In this document: positions 1,650 to 35,469 of the stretch, in pieces
Position numbering within the stretch: the first letter of the stretch is position 1
Layout of the letters: every line of letters starts with the position of its first letter
Assembly (NCBI GenBank): GCA_000934665.2
Contig: JYFJ02004652.1
Span: forward strand, 1-47,993
From: Catajapyx aquilonaris
Lineage: Eukaryota
Direction of reading: 5' to 3'
DNA: 47,993 nt
The notes under the pieces: model-generated
What the model was told of the DNA's origin: nothing
Database searches by the model: none
The model's input: only the letters and a program-made list of their open reading frames with translations
Translations under genes and position numbers: made by a program

Positions 1650-1820
1650 TGAGCTGCCATCATTTTTCACACCATACCTCGTGGCAGTCCGTACATCGTC
1701 CGGTTACATAGTCTCGTGAAATCAGCACAGTCGGTTCCAGACATTCTGAAGATCTGAACCTGCGACCAAAGAGGCTGCTGAGGACATCCTCCAGGGTGGA
1801 CAAGCGGTGGACACAGAAAG
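1650..1820 (+). other. putative non-coding first exon of gene A (intron 1821-2242)
   Basis: Ends in the donor AAG|GTAAATGGGG and shares GGACATCCTCC and GTGGACA motifs with the exon ending at 4532. Acceptor attaattgcAG at 2241-2242. The 5' boundary is approximate. Confidence 0.55.
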
Positions 1821-2260
1821 GTAAATGGGGCATGGGCATGACTCTGAGTGGGACGAAAATTCGACCCAATGTTGCTAAGTAAGCGTCTTGATCATCTTTT
1901 TCCAACTCCAACTTAATTTGCAGCCATGCACTGCCAAAGTTGCCAAAGTTTCAGGTTGCCATTAATTGTCCAGCCACCTGCTAATCCTTATCATCGTGTG
2001 ATTCACCAACCCTGAAAAAGAGTGAGGAAGCTTAGGCAGAAGGTCAATGGGTAATTCGACCAGCATATTTTTGATAACTGAATTGTCCGTCACGTGAAAT
2101 AATTGCAGGGTCAGAAATAAGTTACAAAAAATCAAGCTGCAAAAATGTGTATGGCTTACTTCCCCATTTATAATACTTTCCAAACAAGTTACATGCTAAA
2201 TGTGTACAGTACTCTGCATTGTTCAATTATTATTAATTGCAGGAAGCTTCGAGGAAGAGA

Positions 2261-3064
2261 ATGGCTGCAAACTACTATCCGTCCCGTTCCTACTGGCTGC
2301 GGCTGGAGCAGTTCAACGCAGTGTATGGCAACAACTTCAATATCATCGAAAGTGGACTGGACACAATCTCCAACTCCTACGAGGATATCATCTTCGATCG
2401 TTGCTTGTGTCAATCATGTATCGACGCCATCCAGAACACGACCTCTGGAAGCACACCTGACTGTTGGGTCCATATTATCCATATTACCAGATATCCAGAG
2501 ATCACTCAATATCAAAACCCAATATTTCCATACACTCCTGTTGTTCCTGGCTCAAATGATCCTGAAAGTACCTTCATACCATACCCAACAGGCGATCATC
2601 ACCCAGGATATGAGCCAGTGAGAGATACTAGGGAACCAGACTCCGAATTGTCCATCTCCGAATTGTCCATCTCGTCCGAATTGCCCATCTCCGAAGATAC
2701 ACCTGACCAAGATCTGGATATCCCAGAACCAGAGGAAGTATATCCGATTCCAATGGACAACACGGATTGGGACTGGTTGGGATCCATTAACAACTCTCTG
2801 GAGATTCTTGCTTGGGCAGAGAATATGGCGTCCAGACTTCGAGCATTTTCACGAGACATGTTTAGATGTTCACCTCCTCTTCTTCAAGGAAACGGTGCTG
2901 TTCGTATTCCTTCAGAATCAGAGGTGGAGAACGTCATGAGAGATGCTCAAAGGATCGGAGAAGCGCTGAATGTGCCTTTCTACCAGCTCGGGCCTATGGC
3001 TGGGGGAGATAGGCCTGGGGTTGATGTTGAGACAGTTAAAGAAAATGCCAATGCTGAGAATTAA
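2261..3064 (+). CDS. orphan acidic protein (gene A), 267 aa, starting MAAN; CxCxxC...C..H..H cluster and SELSI repeats
   Basis: 804-nt open frame. The first ATG follows a splice acceptor in the same context as 5802 and 34726. AATAAA at 3863. No family recognised. Confidence 0.7.
   Translation: MAANYYPSRSYWLRLEQFNAVYGNNFNIIESGLDTISNSYEDIIFDRCLCQSCIDAIQNTTSGSTPDCWVHIIHITRYPEITQYQNPIFPYTPVVPGSNDPESTFIPYPTGDHHPGYEPVRDTREPDSELSISELSISSELPISEDTPDQDLDIPEPEEVYPIPMDNTDWDWLGSINNSLEILAWAENMASRLRAFSRDMFRCSPPLLQGNGAVRIPSESEVENVMRDAQRIGEALNVPFYQLGPMAGGDRPGVDVETVKENANAEN
2641..2696 (+). repeat. in-frame 15-18 nt coding tandem repeat (CTCCGAATTGTCCAT)x3
   Basis: Encodes SELSI-SELSI-SSELPI-SE. Unit lengths are multiples of 3. 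Confidence 0.85.
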
Positions 3065-3212
3065 CAGGATTGTAGTGGCCATTTGTCTAAATGATGGGGA
3101 TTAATTTCCTTCAACTTGGAAGAGGGAAATATCTTGCATGATTCATAACATATTTTCCATGTGCTGTTCATGTTCTGTGCTGCCTTATTTCCAGCTTAGT
3201 GGTCCATGTATA

Positions 3213-3553
3213 CAGGGTGTTTCAACTTTTTTGTCCGAACAGTTATCGGAAAATTGCACGTAGCTGCTACTTTGTAAGCAGTGACTTGCAACCGGTGATT
3301 TGTCGGAGGAATGGGGAATGGGGAATGGGGAAAAGGAGGGTCACACATCTCCTGGCATGTGTGGACCCTCTTTTTTTCCATGCTTGACCCTCAATTTTCA
3401 GCGGGGAGCACGTATGCCACTTTAACCTACGATTCGCAGGAAATATTCCTCGTTCCTCCGAAAAAATCACCGTTTGCAAGTCACTGCTTACAAAGTAGCA
3501 GCTACGTGCAGTTTTCCGATAACTGTTCTGACAAGAAATATAGAAACACCCTG
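3213..3553. mobile_element. Tc1/mariner-superfamily MITE
   Basis: About 90-bp TIRs beginning CAGGGTGTTTC and ending GAAACACCCTG, flanked by TA on both sides. Confidence 0.9.
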
Positions 3554-4043
3554 TACATCCGGATTTTTTAAACTATTATTTCCCTGATAACATGTGCAAA
3601 AATGGTGAAAACATGTCAGGACATTATTTATGTCACATTAATTTGGAAAGCTATGAAGAATGATCATTTGCAAGTCATAGTAGTTCATATGGTTTTAATC
3701 GTTTTAGTAATATTGCAGAAAGATTTACCATGTTGAATAGTGTGTGCTCGGCAATGTGACATCTTCATGTAGATCTCTGTGAAATCTTGATTGTGAACAT
3801 CATTAACCTGCCTTAGTTATTTTAGTTGGAATCTGTCATTTTTGTAGCTCAAAAAGTGCCTTAATAAATGCGTGCCACGCACAAAATATGATAAACGAAG
3901 CTTTTTCTTGAAGGTTTACAATATATTATTGTAGAGTGCAGATAAACACTCTACGCATACTGTATGCAAACTTCAATATAAACACATATATAGCAGCCAC
4001 GCCACGGTTGCAACTCAGACTGGACACTGGTATGTCGTTGATG

Positions 4044-4400
4044 TGACGTCAGCTCGCTCACAATTTTGTGGCGAACAAAACAAACGCCATGGCAAGCTCT
4101 GGTGAATAACATTAGTTAATAAATATTGAACCGCTTTATTTCTCCAATGGTAGTACCCTTGTAATAACAATAGCCAAGTGGGTCAAAGGTCAGACGTCGT
4201 TGCCCAACCTCACATTGCAATGCCACGTCATGCTCTTTCCTATTGCCTTATAAGGGAAAAAATTCCTATTAAACGACAATGCCAAATGTCCTACTTTTCC
4301 TGGCTCGCGTAGCAACAAGACACATTTGACGTCACAGGCCCTCCGGTGGAGCCATCTGTCTTTATATGTGACAAACTAGAATTGGAAGAGGCCATTTTTC
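4044..4400 (+). promoter_or_regulatory. putative promoter of gene B
   Basis: Two perfect CRE palindromes TGACGTCA (4044, 4327), TATA-like TTTATAT (4361) and GCCATTTT about 30 bp downstream (4391), just ahead of the first exon. Confidence 0.4.
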
Positions 4401-4532
4401 CTATGGAAGAGGGTGATCTGCCATTATTTTCCTGCAGAAGAGACAGGACACATCCTGGTGACATCGTCTCCTGAGACGTGCAACCGAGGGGCCTGTGGAC
4501 ATCCTCCTGACCTTTAACATCGTGGACATAAG
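4390..4532 (+). other. putative non-coding first exon of gene B (intron 4533-5785)
   Basis: Donor AAG|GTAAATGGGACGTG. Acceptor caattacAG at 5784-5785, followed by AAGC...ATG at 5802. Confidence 0.55.
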
Positions 4533-4921
4533 GTAAATGGGACGTGGGAGTGTGGGTTTCTCTAGATCCGGATTCTTCAGACGTGGCACGTGGGTGTGTA
4601 GGCGGTTTGCGATTAGCGATGAGTTTGACCTTCAGTGTTTATCCAGCTTGTCAGCACATTTACAGATCATCGACATCATGAAACAGGGACTTTAATTTTG
4701 TCGGACGCAACATACTTGTCGTGAATCTGAAGTTAGGCCTAGTCGGTGGGACAGGCTTTTGGCTCGCAAGACAGTACATGTAGCATAGTACGATTGTCCG
4801 AGTGTTCGTTGGGTTCATGTTACAAGGTCAGAATTAAGTGAGGGGCTCATGATTATTTTAGGAAATGATCAGGATATATTGAAGATTCTTCAAGTGAAGA
4901 ATTAGAACAAAATTGTCTGAT

Positions 4922-5117
4922 GGAGGTGTGGTGGGCGAGTTGGTAACGACTCGGCTTGCTGAGTGACAGGTCCCGGGTTCGATCCCCGTCTGGGAGTTCC
5001 CTTTCGCCTGCGTCAGGAGGGTCTCTGACCCGGGCCTTGGAGGCGTCTGGCAACCTAACCTCCAGGGGGACTGCACATGACCCCGGTATAAGTATAACGA
5101 CATTGCACTTGCACCCG
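4922..5117 (+). mobile_element. tRNA-derived SINE family A, 3'-truncated copy
   Basis: A-box-like TGGGCGAGTTGG and B-box GGTTCGATCCC. Homologous to the copies at 9672, 15995 and 17815. Confidence 0.85.
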
Positions 5118-5801
5118 TTAATTATTATTAGGACCCGCGGAAATTATTATTCCGAGGCCAACATAGAAGAATCCTGATAAGAGTTGTGACGTCTCTGATT
5201 TGTACCAAAGTTTTGCGTTACTGTTTTATTGTCCAACCATCTGCTTGTCTTAGCTATTGTGTACTGTCTCTGCATCTCAGAAAGTCATGATTCCGGATGA
5301 GTTATTCGCTGGAAACGTGTACGGGCTGGCATCATTGATAACTGAATATTTCTTTCCGAGAACAATGCATGAAGGAAGGGTCAGAAATAAAGAACATACC
5401 AAGAAGAATCAACTTCAGAGAAAATGGCGAAGAAGTAATCAGGTTATTGTGGGCAGAAAGGTGAACCCACAATAACTCTAAGTCCAATATTGGCGATTTT
5501 TGAGTTATTTACACCACTATATTGTATAGCCTGGTGAAGTCCATTTAATCCCAAAGATTCATAGTGAGCCAGCAATCCAGGTTATTTAACTAGCATGTGT
5601 AGGATAGGGCAAGGTCGAATCTTTTTGATGGATTATCTTGCAACATTCTTTTTGGACTTTTTGGTACTTCTATACCCACAATATGTCCAATGATCCAACC
5701 AACATTCCCATAACAAAGCTGTAAAACGACATATATGTGTGATAGAAGAAAAATTCATACACTAAGCTTCAATATTCAATTACAGAAGCGTCCAGACCAG
5801 A

Positions 5802-6779
5802 ATGGCTGCCAACAATAATTCTGAGCTTCATCCCCTTGAGTTGACCATCCCAGAAGACCCTTCATCCAGTAATAATAATGCTGATCTGGAAGAGCACATT
5901 GATGATGAAACTATGGAACAATTCTTTCGCACCTTTGAAGATATGGCCGCCTGTCATCGTGCCCACCGACCCAACCGCTTGGAACGACCAGCTTCTCTCA
6001 TTAGCAAGATAATTATCTACGAAAGCTACTGTATCCCAACGAACATCATCGTGTCCGAGATCGAGAAGTCCCCGAATTTGGTAACTCTGAAGTTGACTGG
6101 TATTGAAGCCTTCGACTGCAACGACCTCATCAGAAGCGCTGTTGCATCCTGCCCAAATCTGGAGGTCCTCATCATGATCCACTGCTTCGTCTCAGATCCA
6201 GACGTAGTAGAGCAAATGAAAGATTTTTGCCCCAAGCTCAGGGTTTGTGCTTTTAACGACACTGTTATTGGTGGGATCTCTTCTAATGACCTCAGTAGCG
6301 ATTCAAATGACGATTGGGTTACTTTTATTCGTAATCACACGATCATAGGAAATCGGGAGGCTGCAACTCCAGCAGGTCCTCTGGCTGCCCCCGATAGTGT
6401 TCCTGGAAGTAGCCAAATGCCACAGTTTGTTCCTGTTCACCAGATATCTCATCGAATGAATGGTATTAGAGCACCACCATATGGATTGCCCAGAGAGCCA
6501 ATCCAAAGTTGGAATGACCGCATACTAAATGATTACAACCATAATTTACATGGTCGTGAAGCAGTAGCTGGACCTCGGGCTGTTCACTCATGTCAGGAGC
6601 CACCTCCTCGACCACCTACACATGACTCGGCTCATTCTCTGTTAACTAGCAGGATGTTGTTCAATCAGTTCATGACTTCCGTTAGGCGCGATCCTACTAT
6701 GATGATAGAAGATATGGACATTCCTTTGGAACTGATTGATGACACATCTGATGACTCAGATACCACAGATGAGGAGTAG
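5802..6779 (+). CDS. LRR protein related to the F-box/LRR paralogs, with a degenerate F-box and a disordered acidic tail (gene B), 325 aa
   Basis: IPTNIIVSEIEKSPNLVTLKLTG..FDCNDLIRSAVASCPNLEVLIM..C...FCPKL aligns with the 31489 and 34726 proteins. Cys-containing LRRs (CPNL, CPKL). Confidence 0.8.
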   Translation: MAANNNSELHPLELTIPEDPSSSNNNADLEEHIDDETMEQFFRTFEDMAACHRAHRPNRLERPASLISKIIIYESYCIPTNIIVSEIEKSPNLVTLKLTGIEAFDCNDLIRSAVASCPNLEVLIMIHCFVSDPDVVEQMKDFCPKLRVCAFNDTVIGGISSNDLSSDSNDDWVTFIRNHTIIGNREAATPAGPLAAPDSVPGSSQMPQFVPVHQISHRMNGIRAPPYGLPREPIQSWNDRILNDYNHNLHGREAVAGPRAVHSCQEPPPRPPTHDSAHSLLTSRMLFNQFMTSVRRDPTMMIEDMDIPLELIDDTSDDSDTTDEE

Positions 6780-8446: not shown

Positions 8447-10011
8447 CTAAAGGGAACAATTTATATAAGCTTTGTGCTGTTCTTTTAAACAAGTACATAT
8501 ATTTCTTTCATGGAATACTGGAGTTACTCTCTTCCACTCTTCCTTTATCATGGCAGCAGCCTTCTCCGCAATCATCATGATGGCAGCGTTAGGATTAGAA
8601 TTGACCAATGTTGGCATGATTGAAGAGTCAGATACTCTTAGGCCACTTACTCCCCAGACCCTGAAAATAATTAAAAATAATAATGCATATACTCTGCTCA
8701 TAGTCAATCATCTGTTTTAAATGTTATACGTAGATAGGTAATTTTTACCTTAGACGTTGATCAACCACAGCAGACTCATCATGCTTTGGTCCCATTTTAC
8801 ACGTGCCAGCCGGATGGAATATAGTTAAAGTCAAGTGTATTGCGTAACATTCCCAGTATTCATTACTCAAGAGATCAAACTTTTCGCATCCGGGTAAATG
8901 AGTCGCAGGTAAAGAACCCCCAAGCTCTTGAAAGGGAGTAGTGCGGCTGATGTTTAGAGACGAATGAATTGCTGACCAAGAGAAGAAATAAAGCAATAAT
9001 ATTATCAGTTATTCTCATATATAGGAACAGTCATCCTCGACATGTGTTCTTACCCTCAAGAAGAACTTTCATATCACTCGAATGTGAAAAGTATCTAGGG
9101 TCTACATGAGGTGTTGTGTACGGGTCAGTGCTCTCCAGCCAGATTCGACCTCTGCTTCTGGGCCTGCTGATCAAGGCCAACAGCCCAAATGCATCCTTTC
9201 CATCATGTGGCAAAAAGTGTCGATCCACAATCTGAAGATAACAACAACAACAATGGTGCTGGTAGTAGTTATTCTGTAGTAGGCCCTATAGTGAAACATC
9301 GTGACCAGTCTTACATGATTTTTGATGTTGGAACTCGCTTTGAACATGTCAAATAGAAATGTGGACATTCCAACGGATATGAGCATAAGTTGAGTGTCCG
9401 GCCAATGATTGTTGCCACTCTTGTTGTTGCTTAATGATGAACTGAGGAATGCCGATCCTTGAACTGCCAGTGTTGTCGTCAGAGAACCTGTCAAAACATA
9501 AAAAGTGTGCGACCATTAAGTTCTTTACATTACACAATTTGATATTATAATCATAATAAAATAAACGAATGCAAAAAAATTAAGCCTATTATATGAGAAT
9601 TGAGTAACATAAAATCAGCTGCTATTGCTTCAATCGTATGGCTAAAAGAATTGAAATAATTAATTAAATTTGGGGAGGTGTAGATGGCCGAGATGGTAAC
9701 GTCTCGGCTTGCTGAGTGAAAGGCCCCAGGTTCGATCCCCGCCTGGGGAACTTTCCTTTCACCTGCGTCAGGAGGGTCTCTATAACCTGCACCAAGGAGG
9801 TGTCTGGCAACCTAACCTCCTGAGGAACAGCACATGACCTCTTTACCGACATTGCTCTTACACCCATGTTCCCTCCCCAAAAATCCCCATATCCTTACCT
9901 CATGTCCTTTAATCCTTGCACCGGAGTTAGAAGAAAAAAAATCAGAAAATTGAAGGAAAAATAGTGGTATTCCACCCCCTATAAGGGCATATGGCCCTAT
10001 CACGGGGTAAC

Positions 10012-10061
<50 letters not shown>

Positions 10062-13000
10062 TAATTAATTTTTAATTAAAAATTTTTAAATTGCTAATAA
10101 TATTAGAGTTATAAGAACAAAATAGGGTCCAATAGGGGGTATCTCTGAATAAAAATGAGTTGCGTATGAATACCATTTGTTAATTAATAAGCATATTGAG
10201 TGGCATGCAACTTATTGTGAATATTGCTGTTGATTGCAACGGAGATAATCACTTTGCTCAGTAGTAATTCACCAATATTCTTTTTGATATTACGTTTTCT
10301 TATTTGAATGGGATGTGAGGTATAAATATGAGAAAAGCCTCGAGAAAAGCGATATAAAAATTCGTTTTCTAGGAAACACTATATCCATTGCACAGGTTGC
10401 ATGTAAAAATCATACCCTGATCATACTATACGTCAAAATGTAAATACAGTATCTAACGCCTGCCGATGTCGTAAGATTCATGTTTAATTCACGTAAGCAA
10501 GGGGTTAAAAATACAATTCCGGGTACCAGTTACATATGAAAGGTTACGGGCAAGGTTATAAGCAATACGCAGCTTATAATATCACAGCTTGTAATTTTTT
10601 CCATCTCATTTCTCACGCTGTAGTTGGGGTGTTTTTGTCCATCCTCCTAAGAAAAGGTAGCCTATAGGTACTAGTGTATATTTAAATGATGAGAACTACA
10701 ATATTTTTGAATACACCCAACCCCTCAACTTATGTCATTCTTCTAGAAGAATTACACTTTAGCGTGAGAAATGAGATGGAAAAAATTTACAAGCTGTGAT
10801 ATTCAGTTGCGTATTGCTTATAACCTTGCCCGTAACCTTTCATATATAACCTGTATTTTTAACTCTTTGCTTACGTGAGTTAAACATGAATCTTACGACT
10901 TCTGCAGGAGTTAGTTCCTGTATTTACATTTTGAAGCAGTATGATATGCAACCTGCGCAATGGTATATTCCGTTTCCTAGAAAATGATTTTTCTATCGTA
11001 TTTCACATAATATTATTTTATACCTCATAATATCCTATATTCAAATAAGAAAACGTAAAATCAAAAAGAATATTGGTGAATTACAGAGCAAAGTGATTTT
11101 CCCCGTTACAATCAACAGCAATTCACAATAAGTTGCTTATTAATATTAATTAACAAATGGTATTCACACGCAACTCTTTTTTATTCAGAGATACAACATG
11201 CATGTAATTCAAAGGATTCTCATACCTTCTCCACTGCTGATGTATTTGAATACGGCTTCAAGTGTTAAATCTCTTCCTGGAAGAAGTGACCTAGGCTTGT
11301 TGATGATGAATGGCGTGATGTAGGTTCCATAGTGATCTTGAAGATTTTCGCCCACCGAGAGGTTGGCCACAACCGGAATCTATCAAAGTTGGTGTATCAT
11401 ATTATTTGCAATTTCTTTTGAAATTAGCGTAATCAGGACTGTGACCAATACTAATCAACTTTTATAATTGGGCAGATGGATAATATATTCGAAGGAAAAG
11501 ATATACAGTGAAGGGGGTCCCTTTTCTATGATTCATATTCCTGTAGAGGAAGTAACACAAAGTGCTGGGGATGTACTGTCACCTTTTCAGTCTATGCTCA
11601 AAGCATAGAAAGAAATAACTATTTAGGACAAGTTTCACTTTACTTGAAAATAAAATTAATATCCCCGTTATCCATCAGGGATTTTGAAAACGTACACACC
11701 AAAATCATTTACCTTCAAAGAATTCAGTTGTTCTGCAGGTCCAATTCCGGACAAAATGAGCAGCTGTGGAGAGCTAATTGCTCCTGCCGACAATATCACT
11801 TCCTTCCTGCTCTTCAGCTCCACTATGGTACCAAATCTCTCAGCTAGTACACCATACACTTTTTTGTTGCTGTCGATTAATAGCTTGAAAGGAAAATGTA
11901 CTCGTATTTGAACTGCATGCCCCAAAAAAACAATTAACTATCCAACTCACTTTGTGCACGTGTGTTCGTGTCAGTATACGCAAATTAGGCCTGTGCAATA
12001 CTGGTGCTAAGTAACAGTGGTACGAACTACACCTTTCGCCATTTCGCTGAGTCACAGGCACGCTGCAAAATCCTGTGCCAACAATAAATCATATTAGCCA
12101 AAATTATTCATGCATTGCGAAATTCCCAGCAGTACCGGTACTACATCGTACATTCGTACTGTACAATCGTACTACCTTCATGTTGACATCCGAATCCATC
12201 CCTGGATGAATTGTATCCTAGAAGTTCTCCAGCACGTAAGAAGTCGTCTTCCAAAGGAATGTATGATTGGTCACTCACGGCCATGTGGCCATTTACTTCT
12301 GCAAATGGCAACATTTGCCATAAAAAATTTATCCGTAATTATTTTCTGTTATGTTATTAGCTAATTGAACTTACTCCGTGAATTGCGTACTCCGATGCTT
12401 TCAACAGATTTCTTGAAGTAAGGCAGGACGTCACTATAAGTCCAGCCTGAGTTTCCCATCTCTTCCCACTCGTCATAAGTCTTAGAGTCACCTCTGAAGT
12501 ACATCATGTAATTGATGTTGCTAGAGCCTCCAAGCCCTCTTCCACGAGGCCACGATGACCTCTGAAAATGGACAAATATTTAACACAAAATCACTTTCAG
12601 CTCATTTTTCTCAACATCATCTAAGTGCATCAACTGTCGTGTCTCACCCTTCCATTCATCCCCTTGCAGGCGTGCTTCTGAGGTACGGTGTAATACTGAT
12701 GGGCATACGGTGTCTGCTGCATGAAAGTGGACACTGCCGGAATGTTCCCCACCACTGGCCACAACGGATGTCCACCAGTTTCCAGGAGAAGGACTTCAAA
12801 CTTTGGGTTTTCCGACAGCCTGCTTGCGAGGACGCAGCCTGCTGACCCTGCTCCCACTGCGATGTGGTAACACGAGGAGAAAGAATTAGTCATAACAAGC
12901 TCTTGGTCATAATCAGTTTAATGGCTTTAAAAAAATCTAATATCAAGGTAAAACCGATGCTGCAATAACCACTTCTTGAAATATTCATACGTGAACGATA

Positions 13001-16347: not shown

Positions 16348-16437
16348 AACTATGGCTGTGGTTATCAGAATACAAAAAGGTGGGACAGATGGAGAGAGAA
16401 ACAAAGAGGAAAAAGAAGAGAGGAAAGACTGATGGTA

Positions 16438-17310: not shown

Positions 17311-17332
17311 AATTATCAAAATAATACACTAG

Positions 17333-20299: not shown

Positions 20300-21078
20300 G
20301 TGAAAGGGTGCGCAGCATCTTGTGAAGATGGCGAACATCGCACATCGCGCGGTCATCCAGTACCTGGTGGCAAAGGGAATGGGTGCCAAGGACATCTTTA
20401 AGGACATGAAGAATACATTGGCTGGCGATGCACCATCCTACAGCATGATCCAGAAGTGGACTGCCCTCTCCAAACACGGCCGAGACAGCCTAGAAGACGA
20501 CCCCCGCTCCGGAAGACCCGTGTGTTCCACCACTGAAGAAAATGTGGCCAAAGTGGAGGAACTAGTGATGGAAGACCGAAGACTGACTATCAGGTACCTT
20601 TCTGAGGTGGTGGGCATCTCAACATTTTTCATCCACACCATACTACCTGACCACCTGCGCCTGTGGAAGGTGTCAGCACGATGGGTACCCCGAATGTTGT
20701 CGCCAGAACAGAAGTCGGGAGATGTCACAATCGAATTTGGACCTGCTGAATGCTGATGCAGAAGGATTTTACGCTCCTCTGGTCACACAGGATGAAACCT
20801 GGGTACCTCTACCTGTTCCCGAACGGCCGAACATGAAGAAACACCTGCGGGGTCGACTCCATGGGAGTGACGAAGAGGTCAAGGCAGCTGTGGAGGACGT
20901 CTTGGGGGGAGGGGGGGGGATGAGATTCTTCCTTCTACCGGAGCGGTTTGGAGAAGTTGCCACGAAGATGGACAAAGTGTATTGACCGGTGTGGGGACTA
21001 TGTTGAGAAATAAAATTGTTTCTTTGTCATGTCTCGCGTATGTCTACTTGAAACCACGAACTTATGTAACACCCCTCG
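20300..21078 (+). mobile_element. degenerate mariner element (transposase pseudogene)
   Basis: HRAVIQYL...EDDPRSGRP...WVPRML, then frameshifted VTQDETWV and an internal deletion removing the YSPDLAP region. Right end ...CACCCCTCG-TA at 21078-21080. Left TIR not found. Confidence 0.9.
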
Positions 21079-21080
21079 TA

Positions 21081-21606
21081 CCTTGTTCTTAGAATACACT
21101 CATCTGCTAGTAATGGCTAAGGGATACGTATGGGATTCCTCTTCCAGTAAAGGTAGTCAACAAACTTGGGTATATTTGGTTTCTTTGTCATTGTTTCCTC
21201 TAAGAAAATGACTGGTTGAATATTTGGTACGTACATATTTGGGTTTGATTTGAAGAAAAGAATTCATCCCTATAAATTTTATTTGAAAACACAAAGCACT
21301 TCAAAATTATACACGTACCTTCAAAGAATTCAGTTGTTCTGCAGGTCCAATTCCGGACAAAATGAGCAGCTGTGGAGAGCTAATTGCTCCTGCCGACAAT
21401 ATCACTTCCTTCCTGCTCTTCAGCTCCACGATGGTGCCAAATCTCTCAGCTAGTACCCCATACACTTTTCTGTTGCTGTCGCACTTGCTGTCGATTAATA
21501 CCTTGAACAGAAATGTATTCGTATTTGAACTACATGCCCCCAAAAAACAACTAACTGTCCACCTCACCTTGTGCACGTGTGTTCGTGTCAGAATACGCAA
21601 ATTAGG
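21081..21606 (-). pseudogene. partial genomic duplicate of the GMC gene (end of coding exon 5, intron, exon 6, part of the next intron)
   Basis: 21317-21606 closely matches 11711-11989 including the intron, with a 12-nt in-frame insertion (SKCD). Weaker intron similarity extends to about 21130. The other exons are absent. Confidence 0.85.
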
Positions 21607-23109
21607 TCAAAAATCGCACGGGATATTCAACTAATGAAAAACGGAGTGAAAATCATATATTTTAATTTTTTCAATTTTTCAAACAATAATTATCCAAATT
21701 TTCCAAACCGAAACTCTTTTTTGGATGCATATTGTATGAATAATGAAAGGATTAATTAAACACCCACAAACTATGCAACTTTCATAAACTTACAGTTATT
21801 TGTTGTTCTTCGAGCAACAAGTGCAATAGACCTTTGTACATTAAAACATTTGAATGTTATCAAAGCCACAATTTGTACGAACTGTAATGCACCAGCAGCA
21901 GCGAGAAATTCTGGAGTTTTAATACATCTTGTATCCTCTTGTGTACTACCATAATTTTACAGTATACTGTAGTTCAGTGTTTCCCAACCTTTGCGTCATG
22001 AAGCCTCCTCGCCCACCCACCCCCGCTTTTCGTTTTCACCAAACACCCAATTAATTTTGCTCTGAAAGCTCATTTCAGCAACGGTTGTTGCCAGAGCTTA
22101 TTCTAAGCCTCCATATGGAATTAAACTGCACGAAATGCATGTTCAACTTGTTGAAATAGGTAAAAATGAGAAAATGTCAACAAGGTTGTTCAAGGTCGCA
22201 AAGCTTAGGTGAATGCAACTGACAAAGTATACAGAGGAATCGTCTATCTACTGTAAGCCCGGTGGGTCGTGACATCCATTGGGGTCTCGAGCATCAGGGT
22301 CGAATAATTTGCAAATTCCATAGGAAACACTAATTGCGGTACCTCTCTAAGCTGGTAATGTAATTTCTGTACAAAAGATGTAGCATGTAGGCCTAGGAGA
22401 CTATACTTTGAGTTTATTTCAAAATTACCGAAAATTACTGTTCGCCCATCGCGAAACTGCATATTAAAGTATTGTCGGTCTACAGCTTCAGCAGGGTTGC
22501 CGATATAGTTATGTGGCCATTGTTTATTGACGATTAGGCATCGTGGTAATACTTTTGTCACGGCCTACATACCTCGCAGCCTGATGAGACCCATCCGAAT
22601 GAGAAAAGGTCATTGAATTTTATTGTCAAAAACCTAGTCAGAACATCTTGGAACGTTTAAATTTTTGCGAAAGCTGAGAAATGCTACTGCTACAACGTCA
22701 TCATAATAGTTGGCCTACATACTTGTACAAACATACTGTCACGTACTGTTGGAATGCAATCTCGGCTAATTATAACTACATATTGCAAATAAAAACAGTC
22801 TCAACTGGAATGCACTGTATCAAAAAGTCAAGATCAAAATTGCAAGGTAGATCATGAATGCAAGGTTTATATTTGATGAAAACTATAGTAACGCAATGAA
22901 GCATTGATTAAAAGCCATCAACTAAATGGGACAAATATCTTCAACAGCCACGAAATATTCAAAAATTGCGACAAAGCACATCCGCTTAGCAACAAAGAGT
23001 GTCCCAGAATGTTGAACCTTCCCAGTGGTGACTCCTACCTGCAAGAGTGGCAATTGATCTTCGCCAAGACCTTTTGTCCCCTTTCCCCTGACGATGTGGG
23101 GGTGTGGGG

Positions 23110-23258
23110 GTGTTGAGACGCCACCATTTTCTTCCTGAAGCTCATCGCAGTCAGATCGTCACCTGTGTCGCTCCATCAGAAGAAGACAACGCCCATATCT
23201 CAAAACTTGCACCGGGAGACAGCAACAGAGTTGAGACAGCAGAGAATCGCTGACCAAG
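23110..23258 (+). other. putative non-coding first exon of gene C (intron from 23259)
   Basis: GCCACCATTTT start motif. Donor AAG|GTAAGTGGGACGTGAGGGGCTAAACGGGACAGTGCGT is similar to that at 34072. Upstream CCTTT(T)GTCCCCT is shared with 33937. Confidence 0.55.
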
Positions 23259-24678
23259 GTAAGTGGGACGTGAGGGGCTAAACGGGACAGTGCGTGGTCA
23301 GATAGGAGGGAAGAACGGACGGTTTCAAGGGGGTTGTGAAGAGGTTAGGCACGAAGTTAGGTTGTTTTAAGAGCAACTGTAATGTAGCAAGTAATACTTG
23401 TCGAGTAAAACATCTGCATTCACGAGCGCATCCAGCAATGTTTGACAAAATGTCCAGACATAGGTGTCCGGAGAGGGATAGTAGACAAGTGTCAGAGAGA
23501 ATGGTCAGTTACTACGATGCAGTAGAGACACGGGATGTCGATGGGACTTAGAAATGATGAAAGCTCACCTTTTAATGTGAGAGTGACCCCAACAGGGCAG
23601 TTATAGCTTCTAGGGTGTGATAGGCCTAGCTCGGGCTGGCACATTTTACGGCACAATATTGGAGTGCAAGTGGTGAAGAATTTTGTCGATTTACAGCAAA
23701 AGTGTAAGAAAAATTGACCGATTCATCGTTTCCTGCAAATGATTGAAATTAGTAGGCCTATTTCGTCTTTTGATTGGCTAGAGCGCTAGACTAATAAATT
23801 CTGCGAGATGTAGTCGAAATGTACCGGTACACCTTCTAAAACTATGGCAATGTAAAAGACGTTGCCCGGTATCACCGATAGGTTAAATATGATATTAAAT
23901 CCAGCATTAGATACAATCATTACATCATTACATAATGTAGGCTAATGAAACAGCGTGCACCTTGAGAGGTGATCGTTTCGATTAGCAATTTCACCATAAG
24001 CTGCTTTTTTGAATAGTAACTTTGGTGCAGTTACTTTTGCAACTTATCAATATGTTATTTTGATAATATCATATTGCAGTGACCCATCTTTTCTAACGCA
24101 TGAAAATGGTGGGTTCTGGCCTGCTAAAAGTGGGTATAATCATTTGCGATGGTGCCAACAACATTATTAATTGTTCTAATGAGACATTCCTTTTACTAAA
24201 TGAAATTCCTAGCATGAATAATGCAATTCGGAATAATTTAAACTGAATTTTATGCACTTTATGCAGTGCAAGTGTCGAAGTAAAGGGCCCAAAATTACTG
24301 GTTAGCCACGTGTAGTTTATTTCTGCAATCTTGTCATTTCATGGTCACTCCCAAAGTGCATGATGATAAAGTGCTGATTCACCGGACCTTTGACCATGAA
24401 CTACATGAGAAAGTGTCGCATAGCACTGATTTTTAATTGCCAAACCACCTGCATCCTCCGGAACCGTCGGATTCGGTTGCAGAGATAATCCTGGGCGCAG
24501 TGAGCAGTGATTGCTTCACGTGTGTCCTCCACAGCGGCACAGAGGTCAAACATTGCAGGATGACATGTCATAATTTGCACTATTTCTGTCGGACATTTTG
24601 ACTTCCCATCGTAGTGTTTCTGGCAGGGCTGGGGAGCTACATCTTGAAAAATATTGTTTTGATTTCAGGCAGGCAGCT

Positions 24679-25380
24679 ATGGGCACGTATCGTTGCTCTT
24701 CGTCGTCTACCGCGGAATGGTTGGTTCCATTCCCTGCATTGTCCAACTGGAACAATTACCCTCCGGTCCACGTCAGACCAGGAGTGTACTCCCATCAGGA
24801 CTGTTGCTTCAATGGGATGGCTCTTCAACCGCCACTCCGCAGTGCCTCTGCACCCTCCCAGCCCATGTGGCCAACAACCTGCATATGCATGGAAGGAAGC
24901 ATGATGACCCCACCGGTCATCCCACCTCGTGTCCAGGGTGCAGGCACCATCATGATGGCTCCTCCACCACCACCTCCGCAATACTACTCGCAGGCCATGC
25001 CGCCGCCCACATTCCCCATACGGAAATACAATGGTCCTGCCTCGTACCGCCGACCTCCTGCCCAGGCCTATCCAGCACCTCCGTACCCTGCAGCCAACGG
25101 TACCTACGTTGCTGGTGCGAAGCCTGCCCCGGTGGGCAGCAGTCTACTACGCAAGAAGAGAGGCTTCGTACCATCGGCACCACCAGGTCGGAATGTTTCC
25201 AGCCGTCCTTTGGGGAATGGTCGTTTTGTACCCATGTATGACCCTTGGAATGGGGGTTTTAAGTTCAATGGTTTTGGCATCTCGGGCAGGCCTGGGGGTG
25301 TCCATGGGGCTGCTCCTGATGAGGGAGACTTGGAGGAGGGGGAGGTGAAGAAGAATACTGGTGAAGGAGCAGAGGAGTGA
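24679..25380 (+). CDS. orphan proline-rich protein (gene C), 233 aa
   Basis: GC-rich open frame. The ATG follows the acceptor ttttgatttcAG. Pro/Tyr/Ala-rich, with RKKR and C-terminal DLEEGEV. No folded domain recognised. Confidence 0.65.
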   Translation: MGTYRCSSSSTAEWLVPFPALSNWNNYPPVHVRPGVYSHQDCCFNGMALQPPLRSASAPSQPMWPTTCICMEGSMMTPPVIPPRVQGAGTIMMAPPPPPPQYYSQAMPPPTFPIRKYNGPASYRRPPAQAYPAPPYPAANGTYVAGAKPAPVGSSLLRKKRGFVPSAPPGRNVSSRPLGNGRFVPMYDPWNGGFKFNGFGISGRPGGVHGAAPDEGDLEEGEVKKNTGEGAEE

Positions 25381-28480: not shown

Positions 28481-31400
28481 AGGTACCGTACTTTTTTTTG
28501 TTAGGCTACGCTTTTTGTGATTGTGCAGCTAATTTTTTGTTTAGAAAGTTTGCTAAATGCTACACCATCAGGTGGACATTGAGCATTGATCCAGAAATTT
28601 ACTATGATTAGTTATTACACTGTATCAGACATGGAATGTACGACAAGTACTCCTCACCATTTCCGTACAGTACAGTACCGACAGTACTCATTTGTCCAAC
28701 ATGCTCTGCAGATTTGATTCTAATAGAGCACTGTAGTTGGCTAACAAAGTGTATACAATAATTATGTTATTATTTCACATTTATATTCTTCAGCTTTGAA
28801 ATACTGGGTTATATAAAAGAAATTATAGTGACTTAACACCTGTTACGGCACACTTTAGGTGATTGTACCCTATATCTACCCTGGCATATTCAAGTACTCT
28901 ACTGTCTACTTTGACGCATTATATTGCATGAGTAACGTTCAGTTCAGCATGTAGTTCACGAAAGTGTATATGTTACCACTTTTAGAAATGAATATAGGCA
29001 TATCTCAATATTACGGAGGGTTCAATTCCAGACCACCAGTTTAATCTAATATTGTCGTACAGCGAATCACTGGCTTTATTCACTTGCTAATGAGTACGAA
29101 ATAGCGGTAGCAATAATGCGTAAAATATTATCCTCAGCCGATGTGTGCGTGCGTCGTAAGAGCGACGAAATTTTCAAAAGTGATGACAATTAATAAAAAT
29201 TCAATACGTAATGCGAGGTATGCCTGTAAAGTAATCCTGCAATGATAATAATGGAATGGCTTCCGTAAATATAATTTTTATTGTATTTTTGCAATAGCTG
29301 TTCACCTGTTGACTGGAAGGTCTTATATCCTTTTTGTGCATTTTATGCATTATTTTATGCATTACCCTGCTTATCCACATGAACACTGTTCGGTTTGCCA
29401 CAATCATGTCGTTGTCATTGTTGCTTTGGGAAATGATACCATTAGTTACTTCAGTTTTGATGTGTGTCCGCTTATGTATCTCCAGAAATGACTGAATAAA
29501 TAAATGAAAATTCCAATCAAGTTTACTTTTTCATGATAAATATGACCCATACATACTCTACATGTAAATTCATGTCGGTCGAAATTCATGACTTTTCACA
29601 TCATGACGTACACTCAATTATATTCAAAGAAAGTGATGTCATCATTGCTGATATTACTATAGGTATGCCACAATGGCAACAGAGGTTACGTCATGGTTGA
29701 ACAGTCAGAGTACACGCCTTGTTTTTCTCCAAAATGTTGAGCTCATATTTGGCCCTGTCTGGAAGGATCCGGCTGTAAGGGATTGGACAACACCCTCATT
29801 GTTTTTCAGGCGTCATTGGACGGCTGGGTTTCTTATCTGGAGCATTTGAAATACGATCCAGCAGCTCTAAGACTGCGAACAGAAGAATTTCAGGACACGT
29901 CATTGCTTGGTGGTTTGCAGTGAAGAGTACTTGGATCTTACTGGCACCCATATATTAGCAGAATATTTGTCTCTAGTTCGGTCCAATCAGCAACATAAAG
30001 GTGAGACAAAATATATGTGCTAACCTGGATACGTCCATGTGTCACGTGACTGGATCGATTTTTTTTGCCGTGTCTGGAGTATTTTTCGTATTAAACGATG
30101 GCATCACTTACACCGTATGTGATGCACTTAATTTCCNGACAAAATATATGTGCTAACCTGGATACGTCCATGTGTCACGTGACTGGATCGATTTTTTTTT
30201 GCCGTGTCTGGAGTATTTTTCGTATTAAACGATGGCATCACTTACACCGTATGTGATGCACTTAATTTCCTGACGTGCACACCAGGTGTCACCTTAGTGG
30301 CCTTCATGTCACCTTCAGGTCACCTTCATGGGCGTTACTAAAATTACAACTATTTTCTCTTGAATATTTAGGATAAAGTTACGCACTCATGTTATACGTT
30401 CTATTGGTAGTCTAATCCTTCGAAATTGGGAGGATTCCCCATAAATATATTATTGCCCTTCATGCTCATGCAATATTGTTTGGCGTACAATATTAGTACT
30501 CCAGTACGTTGTGAAGTTATTGCTACAAAAATTACATCAAATGTAACATGTACTGATATGAAGCACTCAGGTGAAATCAACTTCCTAGAGAAAATGTTTG
30601 TGTTTTCAACATTCTTAACCGTTCCAAAATTATTGCCAGTAGGTAAAAGTGTTATTTTGAGCTGAGAATGTTTCCTTCTTCCACACATAAAGGGCTGATT
30701 GAAGTAAGGTATTTTGTTGAAACATGGTGTTTACGCATTGTTGAATTTGATGAAATAAAAATATACAGCCAGGTCGTGATCATAATCAATTAATCATATT
30801 CAGAGCATATTATTGCCTTTTTTCATATTACAGAACAATAATTTTAACAGCATTGGAGACAATACAATTTCAACAGACATGCGTTTTGCAATTGAAGACC
30901 TCGGGAAGGTCCACATCAGGTGAAACATATATTGCAATTTCAAATTTCGAAGGCTCATAAGGTTTTTAATGTAAAGCCTACATTCGGGGTTTTCCATAGT
31001 GACCTATGCTTATTATTACTCCACAACCACGACCAAACCACCATATTCTACGCTATTGAAACTATCTTCTGAGATAGGTATGTAACACATTTTTGACAAA
31101 AGGTGGACCTTGATCGTTCTTTCCCAGAGGTCTTCAATTACTTTGGACCTGGAATTCTGTGCACAATGTGTAACAATAACTGGTGCGTCCAAAAGTGAAT
31201 TAAAGAATTTTTTTTCCAATAATTGGACTCATTAATTATTGCGTTGAATATTCACATCTGTTTGACACGTTGACTCATTTTTGATTCCTGTTTTTTTTTA
31301 CATGTGGGACTTGACATCATTCGGACTACAATCAGCTCTCACTTCAACACTGCCCACCAGATTGTTTACTTTGGTAAGAGAGCACAGTTTATACTCACAA

Positions 31401-31488
31401 AATGAGTAGTGTCTTTACCTACTGTACATAAAGTGCATTATTTTCTGGTATGTTTCAGATTCACTATCTTATCACATCCATCAGCCTC

Positions 31489-32586
31489 ATGATGACTGAC
31501 TTTTTCAACACTAAACTTGAACATAAAATCAAGGCAGTAATTTTCTCATATCTGTCTACAAAAGATAAGTTGTTGGTCATTCCACATGTATGCCAGAAGT
31601 GGAAAGATATTGTCCTCAACGATACCAGTCTCTGGCAGACAATGGAATTGTCATCTGACATCCCAACTAACCTCTCTGTGGCCCAACTGCAAAGGTCTCC
31701 ATTCCTCAAGACACTAAAGGTCACCGGTTGTGGATTGTACTTCAACTGTGAGGACATTGTAAGAGCTGCTGCCACAAGCTGTCCCGAACTTGAAGAGTTG
31801 AGTTTGAAAAAGTGTATCAGTGGGACTGAGGTGTTAGAATCATTAGTCCAATGTTGTCAGAGCCTTGTTTCGATAGAAATGGACATGTTTCTTTCAAGTA
31901 ATGTAGTGGGGTTGATCTCAGCCTTTTCTCGGTGTCCAAAGTTGCAGAAGCTATCAGTATATTCTGGCATCTATGAGACCAGTTATTCATTGGCTAATCC
32001 AGGTCCTCCATGGAATTACCACAATCTGAGGGAGTTAATGATCGATGAGTTACCTGCTGATTGTTTAACACTGTTGTTGTACAGTATTGGGCAACAGCTG
32101 GAAAAACTATGCATTGACGAAGTTACTACCCCAGATCTATGTCTGTTGTTGGGTAGGTTTCAACAGATAAAAGTACTCGAAATTGAGTTTGCAATGGGCA
32201 TGACCAACAATAGTTTGCTCAATGGTGTTGGGATACTAGGTAACCTTCATCACCTGAAAATATCAAGGGCTTCAAACGTGAATCCTGAAACAATGCATGT
32301 ATTCCTGAGCAGGCGTCATGTGGTTGGCAAATTAGAACATTTGGATCTTACCGAGATTAACTTGAATAACGATTGCCTTAACGCCATTTCTGATAACTGC
32401 AGGAGGCTCAATACACTTACCATAACTTACAAAGGCCTGAGCATGATGTGCCTGAAAAATTTCATGAAAAGTAGATCACCTTCTTTAAAGAAACTCGAAG
32501 TCTGGTACTCTCACGACGAACTAGCTCATGACACGTTGGATTTTGACTACCAAGAAGATCTTCAGGTATTGTTTATCGGAAAGTAG
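31489..32586 (+). CDS. F-box/LRR-repeat (FBXL-type) protein, about 365 aa
   Basis: F-box LEHKIKAVIFSYLSTKDKLLVIPHVCQKWKDIV..SLW followed by Cys-containing LRRs (CPELEELSL, CPKLQKLSV, KLEHLDL, CRRLNTLTI). A probable 5'UTR intron at 31374-31458 moves the start from 31450 to 31489. Confidence 0.9.
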   Translation: MMTDFFNTKLEHKIKAVIFSYLSTKDKLLVIPHVCQKWKDIVLNDTSLWQTMELSSDIPTNLSVAQLQRSPFLKTLKVTGCGLYFNCEDIVRAAATSCPELEELSLKKCISGTEVLESLVQCCQSLVSIEMDMFLSSNVVGLISAFSRCPKLQKLSVYSGIYETSYSLANPGPPWNYHNLRELMIDELPADCLTLLLYSIGQQLEKLCIDEVTTPDLCLLLGRFQQIKVLEIEFAMGMTNNSLLNGVGILGNLHHLKISRASNVNPETMHVFLSRRHVVGKLEHLDLTEINLNNDCLNAISDNCRRLNTLTITYKGLSMMCLKNFMKSRSPSLKKLEVWYSHDELAHDTLDFDYQEDLQVLFIGK

Positions 32587-32826
32587 TATGCAAAATCATG
32601 TCGTACATTTGACTCAATTATGTGAATTTCATTTGTTGTTGAAATAATAACTAAGGAAATATAAACAATGGTGCAATATGGTGACAATTTATCAGTATCC
32701 AGTATTGTTTCCGTGTGGTTTCCAAGGCGACTTGTCCGAACGTTTGCTAGTCACATTTTATTTGGGGTGCTTCTTGGGTCCCAGGGCGAACATCCTTGTC
32801 CTGCACTGTGCCCGTTAGATTCCACC

Positions 32827-33558
32827 ATGGCTCCATCTACTCCCCAACGAGCAAAGTCCGGAACGCTGTCCGGAACAAACGGACGGGTAAAGGACCAAGC
32901 ACAGCTCGAGAAAAACCCGGTGCTAAAACCTGCCGCCTCAGTGCCCGTGATTGTAATGGAGGAGGCCAATCAGACCATGTTCAAGAACTCGTTCCAGACC
33001 GGGTTCCTGTCCATCCTTAACAGCCTCGGCAACAAGCCACTGCAGATCTGGGACAAGCAGGTGAGGCAAGGACATGTCAAGCGTTTAGTCGACAATGACA
33101 TCCTGCATCCGGTGTTGGACATCCTGGGCGTCAACGTCGCCACCACCTTCATCACATGCCCAGCAGACAACCAGAAGACCCTCGGCATTGAGCTTCCTTA
33201 CTTGAACATAATGATCAAGAACATCAAGAAGCACGTCACTGTTGAGGTCCAGATCCTGGATGACAAACATTTGCGTCGACGCTTCCGAGCTTCTACGTAC
33301 CATCTGAGAACCAGAGTTCAGCTGTTCGTCTGTGCCATGCCGTTGCGTCTGGACCACGGATGGAACCAGATCCAGTTCAACCTTGCGGACTTCACCCGTC
33401 GAGCCTACGGTACCAACTACGTCGAGACCCTGCGAGTGCAGATACACGCCAACTGCCGCATCCGAAGGGTGTACTTCGCCGACAAGCTGTACCGTGAGGA
33501 AGACATGCCTGATGACTTTAAGACGTACGTGCCTGTCCCGATGAAGTCCGGAAAGTAG
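32827..33558 (+). CDS. CFAP20: cilia- and flagella-associated protein 20-like (BUG22/C16orf80), intronless, with a 50-aa N-terminal extension
   Basis: [14 protein letters not shown]...KPLQIWDK...RRRFRAS...[40 protein letters not shown] from 32977. Strong-Kozak in-frame ATG (CCACCATGG) at 32827. AATAAA at 33683. Confidence 0.93.
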
Positions 33559-33949
33559 AAGAAGAGGTGGGAGCCTGGGCTTAAGAAAAGTAGAGGAGGG
33601 TTCCACACCACTAAAGACAATGCAAGCATACCCTCTCTGAAAAATTAATGTCATGTTCAAAATTATAAACGTGTGTAAAGCCAATAAATGTCACCGTCTA
33701 ACAAAATTTAACTGTGTATCTCTTAATATAATTTGCGCTTATGTCACTAATATGCTTGATAAATATTTTGGAAGGAAGAGGCCAGTGTCCACTATAGATA
33801 AGTAGTTTCACTCTATTACGAAAAGAAAAAAAAAATCGCCTGGCATCATGGATGTTGAGTTGAGCCTTAGAGTGGAGCCACCTGCTGCAAAAATGTAACA
33901 ACTTCCTTCAAATAAAAAAAGTGTCATCCTGCGGAACCTTTGTCCCCTG

Positions 33950-34071
33950 GAAGCTGCTCCCATTTTACACCGAAGCCTTGACAGTGTGCAGACGTTCTCC
34001 ATCTTTTGTCCAGCAAAGGACAGCCAAGGGGCACTAGGCAGGTCGAGGTTGAGTAGCTCGGACATCACAAG
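33950..34071 (+). other. putative non-coding first exon of gene D (intron 34072-34711)
   Basis: Donor AAG|GTAAGTGGGACAG...GCTAAGTGGGACAGGGCGT. Acceptor tttaattatAG followed by GAAGC...ATG at 34726. Confidence 0.55.
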
Positions 34072-34725
34072 GTAAGTGGGACAGGGACTGGGGGGGCAGC
34101 TAAGTGGGACAGGGCGTTGTTATAAGTTAGGAGTGCTGCTATGCTGTCTAAATGTAACTGTAATATTACGTATGTACTGCATCCGGAAATAGTTTTGTCA
34201 CCTAGACCAGATTAGGATGGTCAACGACAGAGGTTTGCATGAAAGTCACGGGGAAGCAGGTTAGCCGTCAAAGTAGGCTAATTAAAGTGTGATAATAAGA
34301 AACGGATAAGAAGGGGTTGTTACTTTCCCATTAATTTTTACCACTCACACTGACTGTGAGTGATAAAGTCGCAGACACACAAGGAAGAATGATAAAGTGA
34401 CAATTTCGTGCAGTTTTGACCACCTAAATGACCAAGCGTCTCGTCGCCAACAGACTCTAACGGTCAAGCCACCTGTTGGTTTGACATTAACAGATTATAG
34501 GTTTCATAAATAATGCCAAGCCAACTGAATCTTTTATCTTCGCAATTTATAGTAGCTCGATAGTAGGCCTATGCAACATTTAATGTGCTTTCATAACAAT
34601 GATGATTTAATGAGTGCAGACCTAGATGTAATTTGTTTGAATGATCATTGTACTAAATACGCAATGTTTTATTCGAACCAGAAACCAAATATGCAAACAT
34701 TTTAATTATAGGAAGCGAATCCAAG

Positions 34726-35469
34726 ATGGCAGCCAATGATGTGCAGATGGAAGAGGAGGCCCCTGAAGAAACCAGTTTGTTCAACCAGAAGCTGACTTAC
34801 GACGAGATATTGGTGTTATTCTCGTACCTAACTACCTATGAGAAGCTGATGATCGTCCCTCGCGTCTGCAAGTACTGGTCGAGGATTGTCCTGAACAACC
34901 TGTCTCTCTGGAAGAAGATGGACATCGCCGCAGTCGACCACATCCCAACCTCATTTGTGGTGTGGCAGATCCAGAAGGCAGGACCAGTCCTGAAGGAGCT
35001 GAACTTGGTCGGAAACTTCTTCTGGCTCAAATTCAACTGCAACGAAATCATGAAGGCTGCCATTAGGTGCTGCCCTAACCTGAAGATCCTCAGGATGACC
35101 AACTGCTATGTGACAGACAAGTCGACGGTGGACAAGATGCCCGACTTTTGCTCCAAGCTGACCACTGTCCAGATGCATGAGACCACCATCAGATACCCGA
35201 AGGAGTCCTGCGATTCTAAATGCATGATGGAGTTGCTGGCAGCTATCAAATACGAGCTGATCGGACAGCCCTACCCGTATCCTGTCAACTCTTGGTCACT
35301 CTTTGTCCCTCCTTCGATGATGAACACCGTCCGTGTGGTGGTGCCGAAGAAGAAGAGGGAATCAGCAGGAAGGAGGTTCCTGAAAAGGATGCTGCATCCT
35401 TGCCAGAAGAAGTCTAAGGATGCTGGATATGACAACGACAACTCATCTGCCGGTGCGTCCAGTCAGTAA
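34726..35469 (+). CDS. F-box protein with a short LRR region and a basic C-terminal tail (gene D), 247 aa
   Basis: F-box LTYDEILVLFSYLTTYEKLMIVPRVCKYWSRIV...SLW. LRRs CPNLKILRM and CSKLTTV. PKKKR NLS-like motif. Paralogous to 31489 and 5802. Confidence 0.88.
   Translation: MAANDVQMEEEAPEETSLFNQKLTYDEILVLFSYLTTYEKLMIVPRVCKYWSRIVLNNLSLWKKMDIAAVDHIPTSFVVWQIQKAGPVLKELNLVGNFFWLKFNCNEIMKAAIRCCPNLKILRMTNCYVTDKSTVDKMPDFCSKLTTVQMHETTIRYPKESCDSKCMMELLAAIKYELIGQPYPYPVNSWSLFVPPSMMNTVRVVVPKKKRESAGRRFLKRMLHPCQKKSKDAGYDNDNSSAGASSQ

Follow-up and report, generated by a model that had tools for sequence, protein, structure and literature searches.

In contig JYFJ02004652.1 of Catajapyx aquilonaris (assembly GCA_000934665.2; positions 1 to 47,993 of the forward strand, hereafter the window), four plus-strand genes, G1 to G4, begin with the same succession of an upstream box, an initiator-like word, a short predicted non-coding exon, a distinctive donor and a leader intron (units U1 to U4, Table 1). 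Judged from the sequence, we consider that the four units descend, as old local paralogs, from the front end of a single lineage-specific F-box/leucine-rich repeat (LRR) gene, with recruitment of new coding sequence, a reading to which we give a probability of about 0.6. The original prediction held that a promoter/leader/intron module had been duplicated and kept while its coding regions were swapped or diverged beyond recognition. Its four collinear copies are borne out, although the payloads are not all different; between swapping and divergence, the former is favored for G1.

The window is animal DNA with GT..AG introns and contains six intact single-exon coding frames on the plus strand. 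The payloads of G1 to G4 are single-exon frames of 233-325 aa, no two leaders share an acceptor or an open frame, and every leader copy precedes one of the longest open frames in the window. All four units lie within 34 kb. As exons of one or two GMC oxidoreductase genes and a mariner-like remnant lie between G2 and G3, the units do not form one uninterrupted array.

The order of the shared elements is the same in all four units, and the box-to-initiator and initiator-to-donor spacings are of similar order; the spacing from box to acceptor varies among units. The upstream box, of about 30 bases, has the form (T)TGARCCTYC-N-GTGGAGCCAYCTGY, contains an E-box-like CCAYCTG and lies 63-86 bases before the initiator-like word. 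The predicted non-coding first exons are about 113-165 bases long and have a conserved end, GGACAY..AAG, with a donor of the form AAG/GTAARTGGGAC (the slash marks the exon boundary) that is followed by G-runs. All four introns hold another CCAYCTG box, its context being (A)TTGTCCARCCAYCTGCT, 224-549 bases before the acceptor. These two boxes are shared parts that come in addition to those of the original prediction. Six of the 11 plus-strand copies of CCA[CT]CTG fall within the modules, which make up 9.7% of the window (post hoc binomial 2.5e-4). Three units have the acceptor AATT(R)(Y)AG/(G)AAGC, which leads to a start of the form ATG GCN GCN AAY. Read directly in the sequence, all eight splice positions proposed for the four genes are correct, and so are the three starts encoding MAAN, ATGGC(T/A)GC(A/C)AA(C/T) at 2261, 5802 and 34726; G3 starts with ATGGGC at 24679.

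The resemblance of the leaders goes beyond splice consensus and is significant within the window. With nhmmer profiles built from three leaders each, the left-out leader was the best non-training match in all four cases (E values 3.6e-9, 1.8e-6, 5.6e-8 and 2.1e-6). These matches cover about 210-300 collinear bases, from the upstream box to some 20-50 bases beyond the donor, and the best of the other matches in the window, on either strand, had E values of 0.42 to 7.9. Dinucleotide shuffles were beaten in 6/6 pairwise promoter-to-donor comparisons (z 3.2-8.0), the observed score being reached by 0-3 of 300 shuffles. The word AAGGTAARTGGG occurs four times in the 48-kb window, each time at one of the four donors. 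When up to two mismatches are allowed, AAGGTAARTGGGAC has 5 matches against 0.77 expected, a number that 0 of 100 shuffles reach; apart from the four leader donors, these include an echo at 34097, which lies 28 bases inside the G4 intron. There are seven AG/GTAA(A/G)T sites on the two strands, and the continuation GGG(G/A)C is found only at the four leader donors.

The acceptors had been described as similar too, which is true of some pairs only. For G1 and G2, the acceptor and start regions are clearly alike (z 7.0, 0/300 shuffles), the likeness to G4 is marginal (G2-G4, z 2.0, 16/300; G1-G4, z 1.6, 24/300), and in the three pairs with G3 it is absent (z -0.2 to 0.3). Around the donor, U3 most resembles U4 (72% over 53 columns, z 8.0), and it shares only the promoter-to-donor part, with a CCAYCTG box also in its intron.

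Short elements in a common order might reflect a regulatory grammar of transcription-factor sites, an initiator and a splicing enhancer used by many co-regulated genes, with no common descent, at least for U3. We consider this improbable. Such a grammar would explain why only short motifs align, with unalignable sequence between them, and why what U3 has in common with the other units is limited to box, initiator, donor word and intron box. However, U1 and U2 also share collinear words that are not motifs, an acceptor and four codons, and the conserved order in all four units, the upstream spacings and the clustering within 34 kb are better matched by descent. Moreover, outside the four units neither strand of the window gave a profile match, and this holds for the surroundings of the GMC oxidoreductase genes, the CFAP20 gene and a further F-box/LRR gene at 31489.

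U1 and U2 are connected by six collinear matches, which begin at the initiator word and end 12 bases after the ATG. In both introns an exact 13-base word is followed by an exact 14-base word, at distances of 36 and 42 bases, and a shared word of 14 bases was reached by 2 of 200 shuffles. The similarity of G1 and G2 thus takes in promoter, intron words, acceptor and the first four codons, and it ends 12 bases after the ATG; beyond codon 4, similarity of protein or DNA was not found between them. G1 therefore has a 5' segment homologous to its neighbor G2 and a homology that stops inside the gene.

The four payloads had been described as different, which applies to G1 and G3, whereas G2 and G4 are paralogs. 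Their alignment starts at residue 1, MAAN included (31% over 162 aa, E 5.9e-18), so the pair is one of ordinary duplication, with a decayed F-box in G2. The coding homology already noted for the F-box gene at 31489 is confirmed for both (G2, E 3.3e-13; G4, E 1.1e-26 and 38% identity). The Pfam family PF12937 (F-box-like) is matched with 29.8 bits by G4 and 28.9 bits by the gene at 31489 (cut-off 24.3), and Pfam gave zero families for G1, G2 and G3. G2, G4 and the gene at 31489 are therefore members of one fast-evolving, lineage-specific FBXL-like family; the gene at 31489 had no relatives in a word-indexed search of 5.8 billion proteins. The structural model of G4 has a predicted local distance difference test (pLDDT) score of 56.7, and its best PDB matches, to SKP2 (8byl_B, E 1.1e-3), FBXL2 and FBXL17, are weak and above the 0.001 line of the tool.

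G1 is acidic (pI 4.16) and G3 is rich in proline (17.6%), as first described. For neither was anything found in the word-indexed search of 5.8 billion clustered proteins, nor a usable match in the protein atlas. An exhaustive phmmer search of 1.84 billion representatives with G1 returned one match, to a 5320-aa protein in 7 stretches (E 3.9e-5), which we take to be a low-complexity match. Between G1 or G3 and the F-box paralogs, and between G1 and G3 themselves, no similarity was detected by blastp, tblastn, hhalign or shuffled Smith-Waterman comparison. The top value of the latter, for G3 against CFAP20 (z 2.9, 8/500), is regarded as chance. The fold model of G1 (pLDDT 39.6) was too poor for a fold search.

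All four genes may instead be whole-gene duplicates of one F-box/LRR ancestor, with regulatory blocks held under constraint and with coding regions that, in G1 and G3, diverged past recognition. We think this unlikely, although the family changes rapidly (31% identity for G2-G4, 38% for G4 and the gene at 31489, and a G2 in which Pfam detects no F-box), the payloads all consist of one exon and resemble one another in length (233-325 aa), G1 retains MAAN, and its top, non-significant hhalign match (residues 39-62) lies at the offset of the F-box (profile 37-60). Against this, hhalign gives a probability of 0.2% each for G1 and G3, which led us to reject a hidden F-box homology; Smith-Waterman scores against the three F-box paralogs are at chance level (z -1.7 to 1.5); and tblastn searches around G1 and G3 gave F-box relics in none of the frames. 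What weighs most is that G1 and G2 are the pair with the most non-coding similarity and zero coding similarity, whereas G2 and G4 show the reverse, with less non-coding and clear coding similarity. For this reason, recruitment is preferred for G1, which we favor as a chimeric or "recruited sequence" gene made from a duplicated 5' gene fragment, since its front end continues to codon 4 and unrelated sequence follows.

Several points weigh against duplication of the front end with recruitment. A parental source for the coding sequence of G1 or G3 was not found, either in the protein searches or in DNA comparison within the window, and the rapid evolution of the family, with 31% identity between G2 and G4 and the F-box lost in G2, makes extreme divergence of G1 and G3 possible. 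The leaders are unalignable between the short blocks, and single pairwise BLAST matches are marginal (E 0.01-1). U3 lacks the shared acceptor, start and intron interior words. The motif set could be a common promoter grammar of this genome, and the non-module gene starts compared are those passed over by the whole-window scans. Lastly, several frames are open around G3, so the length of its open reading frame (ORF) is by itself weak evidence. The 3' flanks of the four units show no similarity to each other, and the sequence upstream of U1 has no collinear match downstream of the G1 breakpoint, a negative that carries no information for copies of such an age.

The predicted gene models receive good indirect support from the leaders being free of ATG. 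In the 594 bases of predicted spliced leader there are 0 ATG against 13.4 expected (Poisson 1.6e-6), and among random sets of four segments 0 of 20000 lacked ATG altogether; the introns, with 10, 19, 35 and 17 ATG, are near expectation. The first in-frame ATG of each ORF, 10-18 bases after the acceptor, would thus be the first AUG of each spliced RNA. Words of the type GCCAT or CCATNTT are present in all four units, with the ATG-free zone starting 10-70 bases upstream of them, and CCAT..TTT is frequent in the window. GCCAT..TTTT is reminiscent of YY1/Pho sites and of the initiator (Inr) consensus YYANWYY. U2 has two such words, and its exon 1 would contain one ATG (4402-4404) if the first is used and zero if the second is. 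Around the donors, conserved RNA structure amounts to just 5 weak pairs (-1.65 kcal/mol), and there were 0 Rfam matches and 0 genes in a tRNA search.

That G1 or G3, or both, are non-functional, as chance or decaying frames behind leftover promoter copies, is very improbable. The protein searches without homologs, the low pLDDT of the G1 model and the several open frames in the G3 region would fit this. Yet codon use in the ORF frame scores 0.202 bits per codon for G1 and 0.146 for G3, as in the window's recognizable genes, and none of the 237 non-coding controls exceeds 0.038. Furthermore, the ATG of each ORF comes first in the predicted spliced RNA behind an ATG-free leader, and the intact frames (233-267 codons) stand exactly behind the acceptors.

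Whether the leader is an abundant repeat was addressed in DNA contigs of the source organism at a likeness of at least 80%. The U1 and U2 leaders have the single-copy depth of their flanks and are thus not an abundant repeat; this depth covers two of the four leaders and misses copies below 80% likeness. A twofold rise or so in bin 1774-1960 lies over a 21-base side of a repeat contig, and the repeat bins in the same stretch range from 444 to 174,060. A dispersed repeat or transposon carrying a promoter was rejected on the basis of the single-copy depth of U1 and U2.

Two repeats enlarge the intron of U2, one very abundant (4922-5115) and one moderate (about 5514-5700). The former has a summed contig depth of 174,060 compared with about 30 for the flanks and is tRNA-like by eye, and ARAGORN calls no tRNA in it. 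Between G1 and U2 there is another abundant repeat, at about 3083-3643. One sequencing run of unspecified kind matches only the repeats at 3083-3643, 4766-5139 and 5514-5700, with none of its matches on G1 or G2.

Under duplication with recruitment, the ancestral front end would have consisted of a compact promoter, a non-coding first exon, a donor with G-runs and an intron with the second CCAYCTG box. G2 and G4 would be diverged duplicates that kept the coding region. G1, directly upstream of G2, would have inherited the front end as far as codon 4, with unrelated sequence behind it, and G3 would have retained the promoter, the first exon and the start of the intron only. The box and the initiator would together form the compact promoter, and the exon end GGACAY..AAG, the donor and the G-runs would secure splicing of the leader intron. 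Since these short blocks survive in otherwise saturated non-coding DNA, they are probably working cis-elements under selection, and the four genes are likely expressed alike.

A bolder possibility, which we regard as doubtful, is that selection has kept the module as an expression cassette whose age and conservation exceed those of its proteins, and that the locus is a nursery of new, co-expressed genes. The cassette, with elements both upstream of and inside the leader intron, would then have repeatedly acquired or spawned unrelated frames such as G1 and G3, and further copies with orphan payloads could be present elsewhere in the genome.

With regard to what may bind the boxes, the E-box word CAGRTG fits seven of the eight, upstream and intron boxes taken together. 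The AGGNGGC core is common to the CTCF consensus of Drosophila and vertebrates, according to the part of the literature that we draw on (PMC1904468). A CTCF reading was rejected, as this core, in reverse orientation, occurs in 3/8 boxes and the fly AGGTGGCGC in 0/8. A literature text search with six of the motif words gave only coincidental primer-like matches among the 15 listed of 356 papers.

Table 1. Positions of the leader units, their genes and neighboring features in the window.
Feature	Position	Strand	Description
U1 upstream box	1576..1600	+	cctcctGTGGAGACACCTGC; leave-one-out match 1576-1854 begins here
U1 predicted non-coding exon 1	1656..1820	+	from initiator-like GCCATCATTTTT (1656-1667); putative transcription start
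U1 leader intron	1821..2242	+	GT..AG, 422 bases; GT at 1821, acceptor AG 2241-2242; opens GTAAATGGGGCATGGG; intron box GTCCAGCCACCTGC at 1968-1981
U1 intron words	TTGATAACTGAAT 2071-2083, AGGGTCAGAAATAA 2107-2120	+	both identical in U2 intron
G1 coding frame	2261..3064	+	267 aa, acidic orphan, starts MAAN; exon 2 from 2243
U2 upstream box	4338..4359	+	cctccgGTGGAGCCATCTGT
U2 predicted non-coding exon 1	4391..4532	+	initiator-like words GCCATTTTT 4391-4399 and GCCATTATTTT 4420-4430
U2 leader intron	4533..5785	+	1253 bases; GT at 4533, acceptor AG 5784-5785; opens GTAAATGGGACGTGGG; intron box 5231-5244
U2 intron words common to U1	5335-5347, 5377-5390	+	
G2 coding frame	5802..6779	+	325 aa, starts MAAN; paralogous to G4 and the gene at 31489
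U3 upstream box, degenerate	23025..23042	+	GTGGTGACTCCTACCTGC
U3 predicted non-coding exon 1	23120..23258	+	from initiator-like GCCACCATTTTC
U3 leader intron	23259..24668	+	1410 bases; GT at 23259, acceptor AG 24667-24668; opens GTAAGTGGGACGTGAGGGGCTAAACGGGACAG; CCACCTG box 24445-24451
G3 coding frame	24679..25380	+	233 aa, proline-rich orphan; acceptor and start unlike the other three
U4 upstream box	33859..33885	+	ccttagaGTGGAGCCACCTGC
U4 predicted non-coding exon 1	33952..34071	+	initiator-like CCCATTTTA at 33959-33967
U4 leader intron	34072..34711	+	640 bases; GT at 34072, acceptor AG 34710-34711; opens GTAAGTGGGACAGGG; echo CTAAGTGGGACAGGG at 34099; intron box 34463-34476
G4 coding frame	34726..35469	+	247 aa, starts MAAN; F-box-like, then LRR-like part
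U1-U2 collinear matches	1649-1666/4413-4430; 1778-1792/4493-4507; 1818-1836/4530-4548	+	
U1-U2 collinear matches, continued	1943-1982/5205-5245; 2107-2120/5377-5390; 2231-2272/5773-5813	+	
F-box/LRR gene	31489..32586	+	365 aa; without this leader in the window; comparison gene, outside the module set
GMC oxidoreductase exons, one or two genes	8450-12917 and 21310-21606	-	between G2 and G3
Mariner-like helix-turn-helix remnant	20304-20753	+	between G2 and G3
CFAP20 gene	32827-33558	+	PF05018 E 9.5e-80; PDB 7rro E 1.5e-93

The F-box gene at 31489 does not have the leader, as had been stated: there is no leader-like match between 25400 and 31489, and none within 6 kb upstream of the gene. Its frame is open for 57 bases upstream of the first ATG and starts in phase at a good acceptor, tttcag/ATT (31458/31459), so the gene probably has an upstream exon, coding or not. 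It is conceivable that the gene uses the U3 donor at 23258 across 8 kb.

The CFAP20 gene, which starts 240 bases behind this F-box gene, is intronless and well conserved; translation from the first ATG might lengthen its N terminus by 50 residues. The word GTTTCCAAGGCGAC (32718-32731), about 100 bases upstream of this ATG, agrees at 12 of 14 positions with the RFX X-box consensus. Elsewhere in the window, about 135 bases are directly duplicated at 30000-30290 on the plus strand with a single N at 30137, where the copies join; an assembly artefact is possible, and so is a tandem duplication of recent date. At 153-835 on the minus strand, long open frames of repeated IY and HL dipeptides reflect simple-sequence DNA and are no gene.

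Duplications of this type are known from Drosophila yakuba, for which the account we rely on describes tandem duplications of the 5' parts of transcripts that give rise to chimeric genes and switch on hitherto untranscribed sequence (Rogers and colleagues 2017, PMC5460883). It lists 43 putative cases in which non-coding sequence was recruited, 15 of them without an inherited start codon, and 30 cases in which previously untranscribed neighboring sequence was activated, with 23 detected in testis (PMC5460883). As in the cases described there, a promoter, a 5' untranslated region and sometimes a start codon would here have been copied in front of unrelated sequence, and the new copy adjoins its parent as G1 adjoins G2 (PMC5460883). 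However, the D. yakuba duplications, as far as that account goes, are young, polymorphic, nearly identical and proven by RNA-seq, whereas the four copies here are old, apparently fixed and of predicted transcription. The conserved leader intron of the copies here also sets them apart from the D. yakuba cases as described.

Sdic of Drosophila melanogaster reportedly arose from a chimeric gene and is said to be linked to sperm function. Like Sdic, as portrayed in the source at hand, the genes here belong to a lineage-specific tandem family (PMC7475035). The copies of Sdic, in that portrayal, share the coding region, whereas here it is the non-coding front end that is shared and two of the payloads are unrelated. 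Another parallel is hydra, presented in its source as a new gene that is expressed in testis and has alternative first exons, nine of them, that were duplicated, and likewise showing local duplication of a promoter and first-exon unit in a young orphan gene (PMC1904467). The layout described for hydra is the inverse, with many first exons for one body, whereas each leader here has its own acceptor and frame.

With FBXL-type proteins such as SKP2, FBXL2 and FBXL17, G4 and the gene at 31489 have in common that they pass the Pfam F-box-like threshold. G2, in contrast, has no detectable F-box, and G1 and G3 are not members. The short blocks kept between very old copies are a natural footprint of what are probably the working promoter and leader-intron elements in a non-model arthropod.

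The locus is probably best read as duplication of a front end with recruitment of new coding sequence, which has been described in Drosophila and is not a new principle. If the junctions are confirmed, a parental F-box/LRR family, its diverged duplicates, a chimera with promoter, leader intron and four codons, and a copy with promoter and first exon only would be found in one 34-kb stretch, and stages that fly population studies have seen only singly would stand together here.

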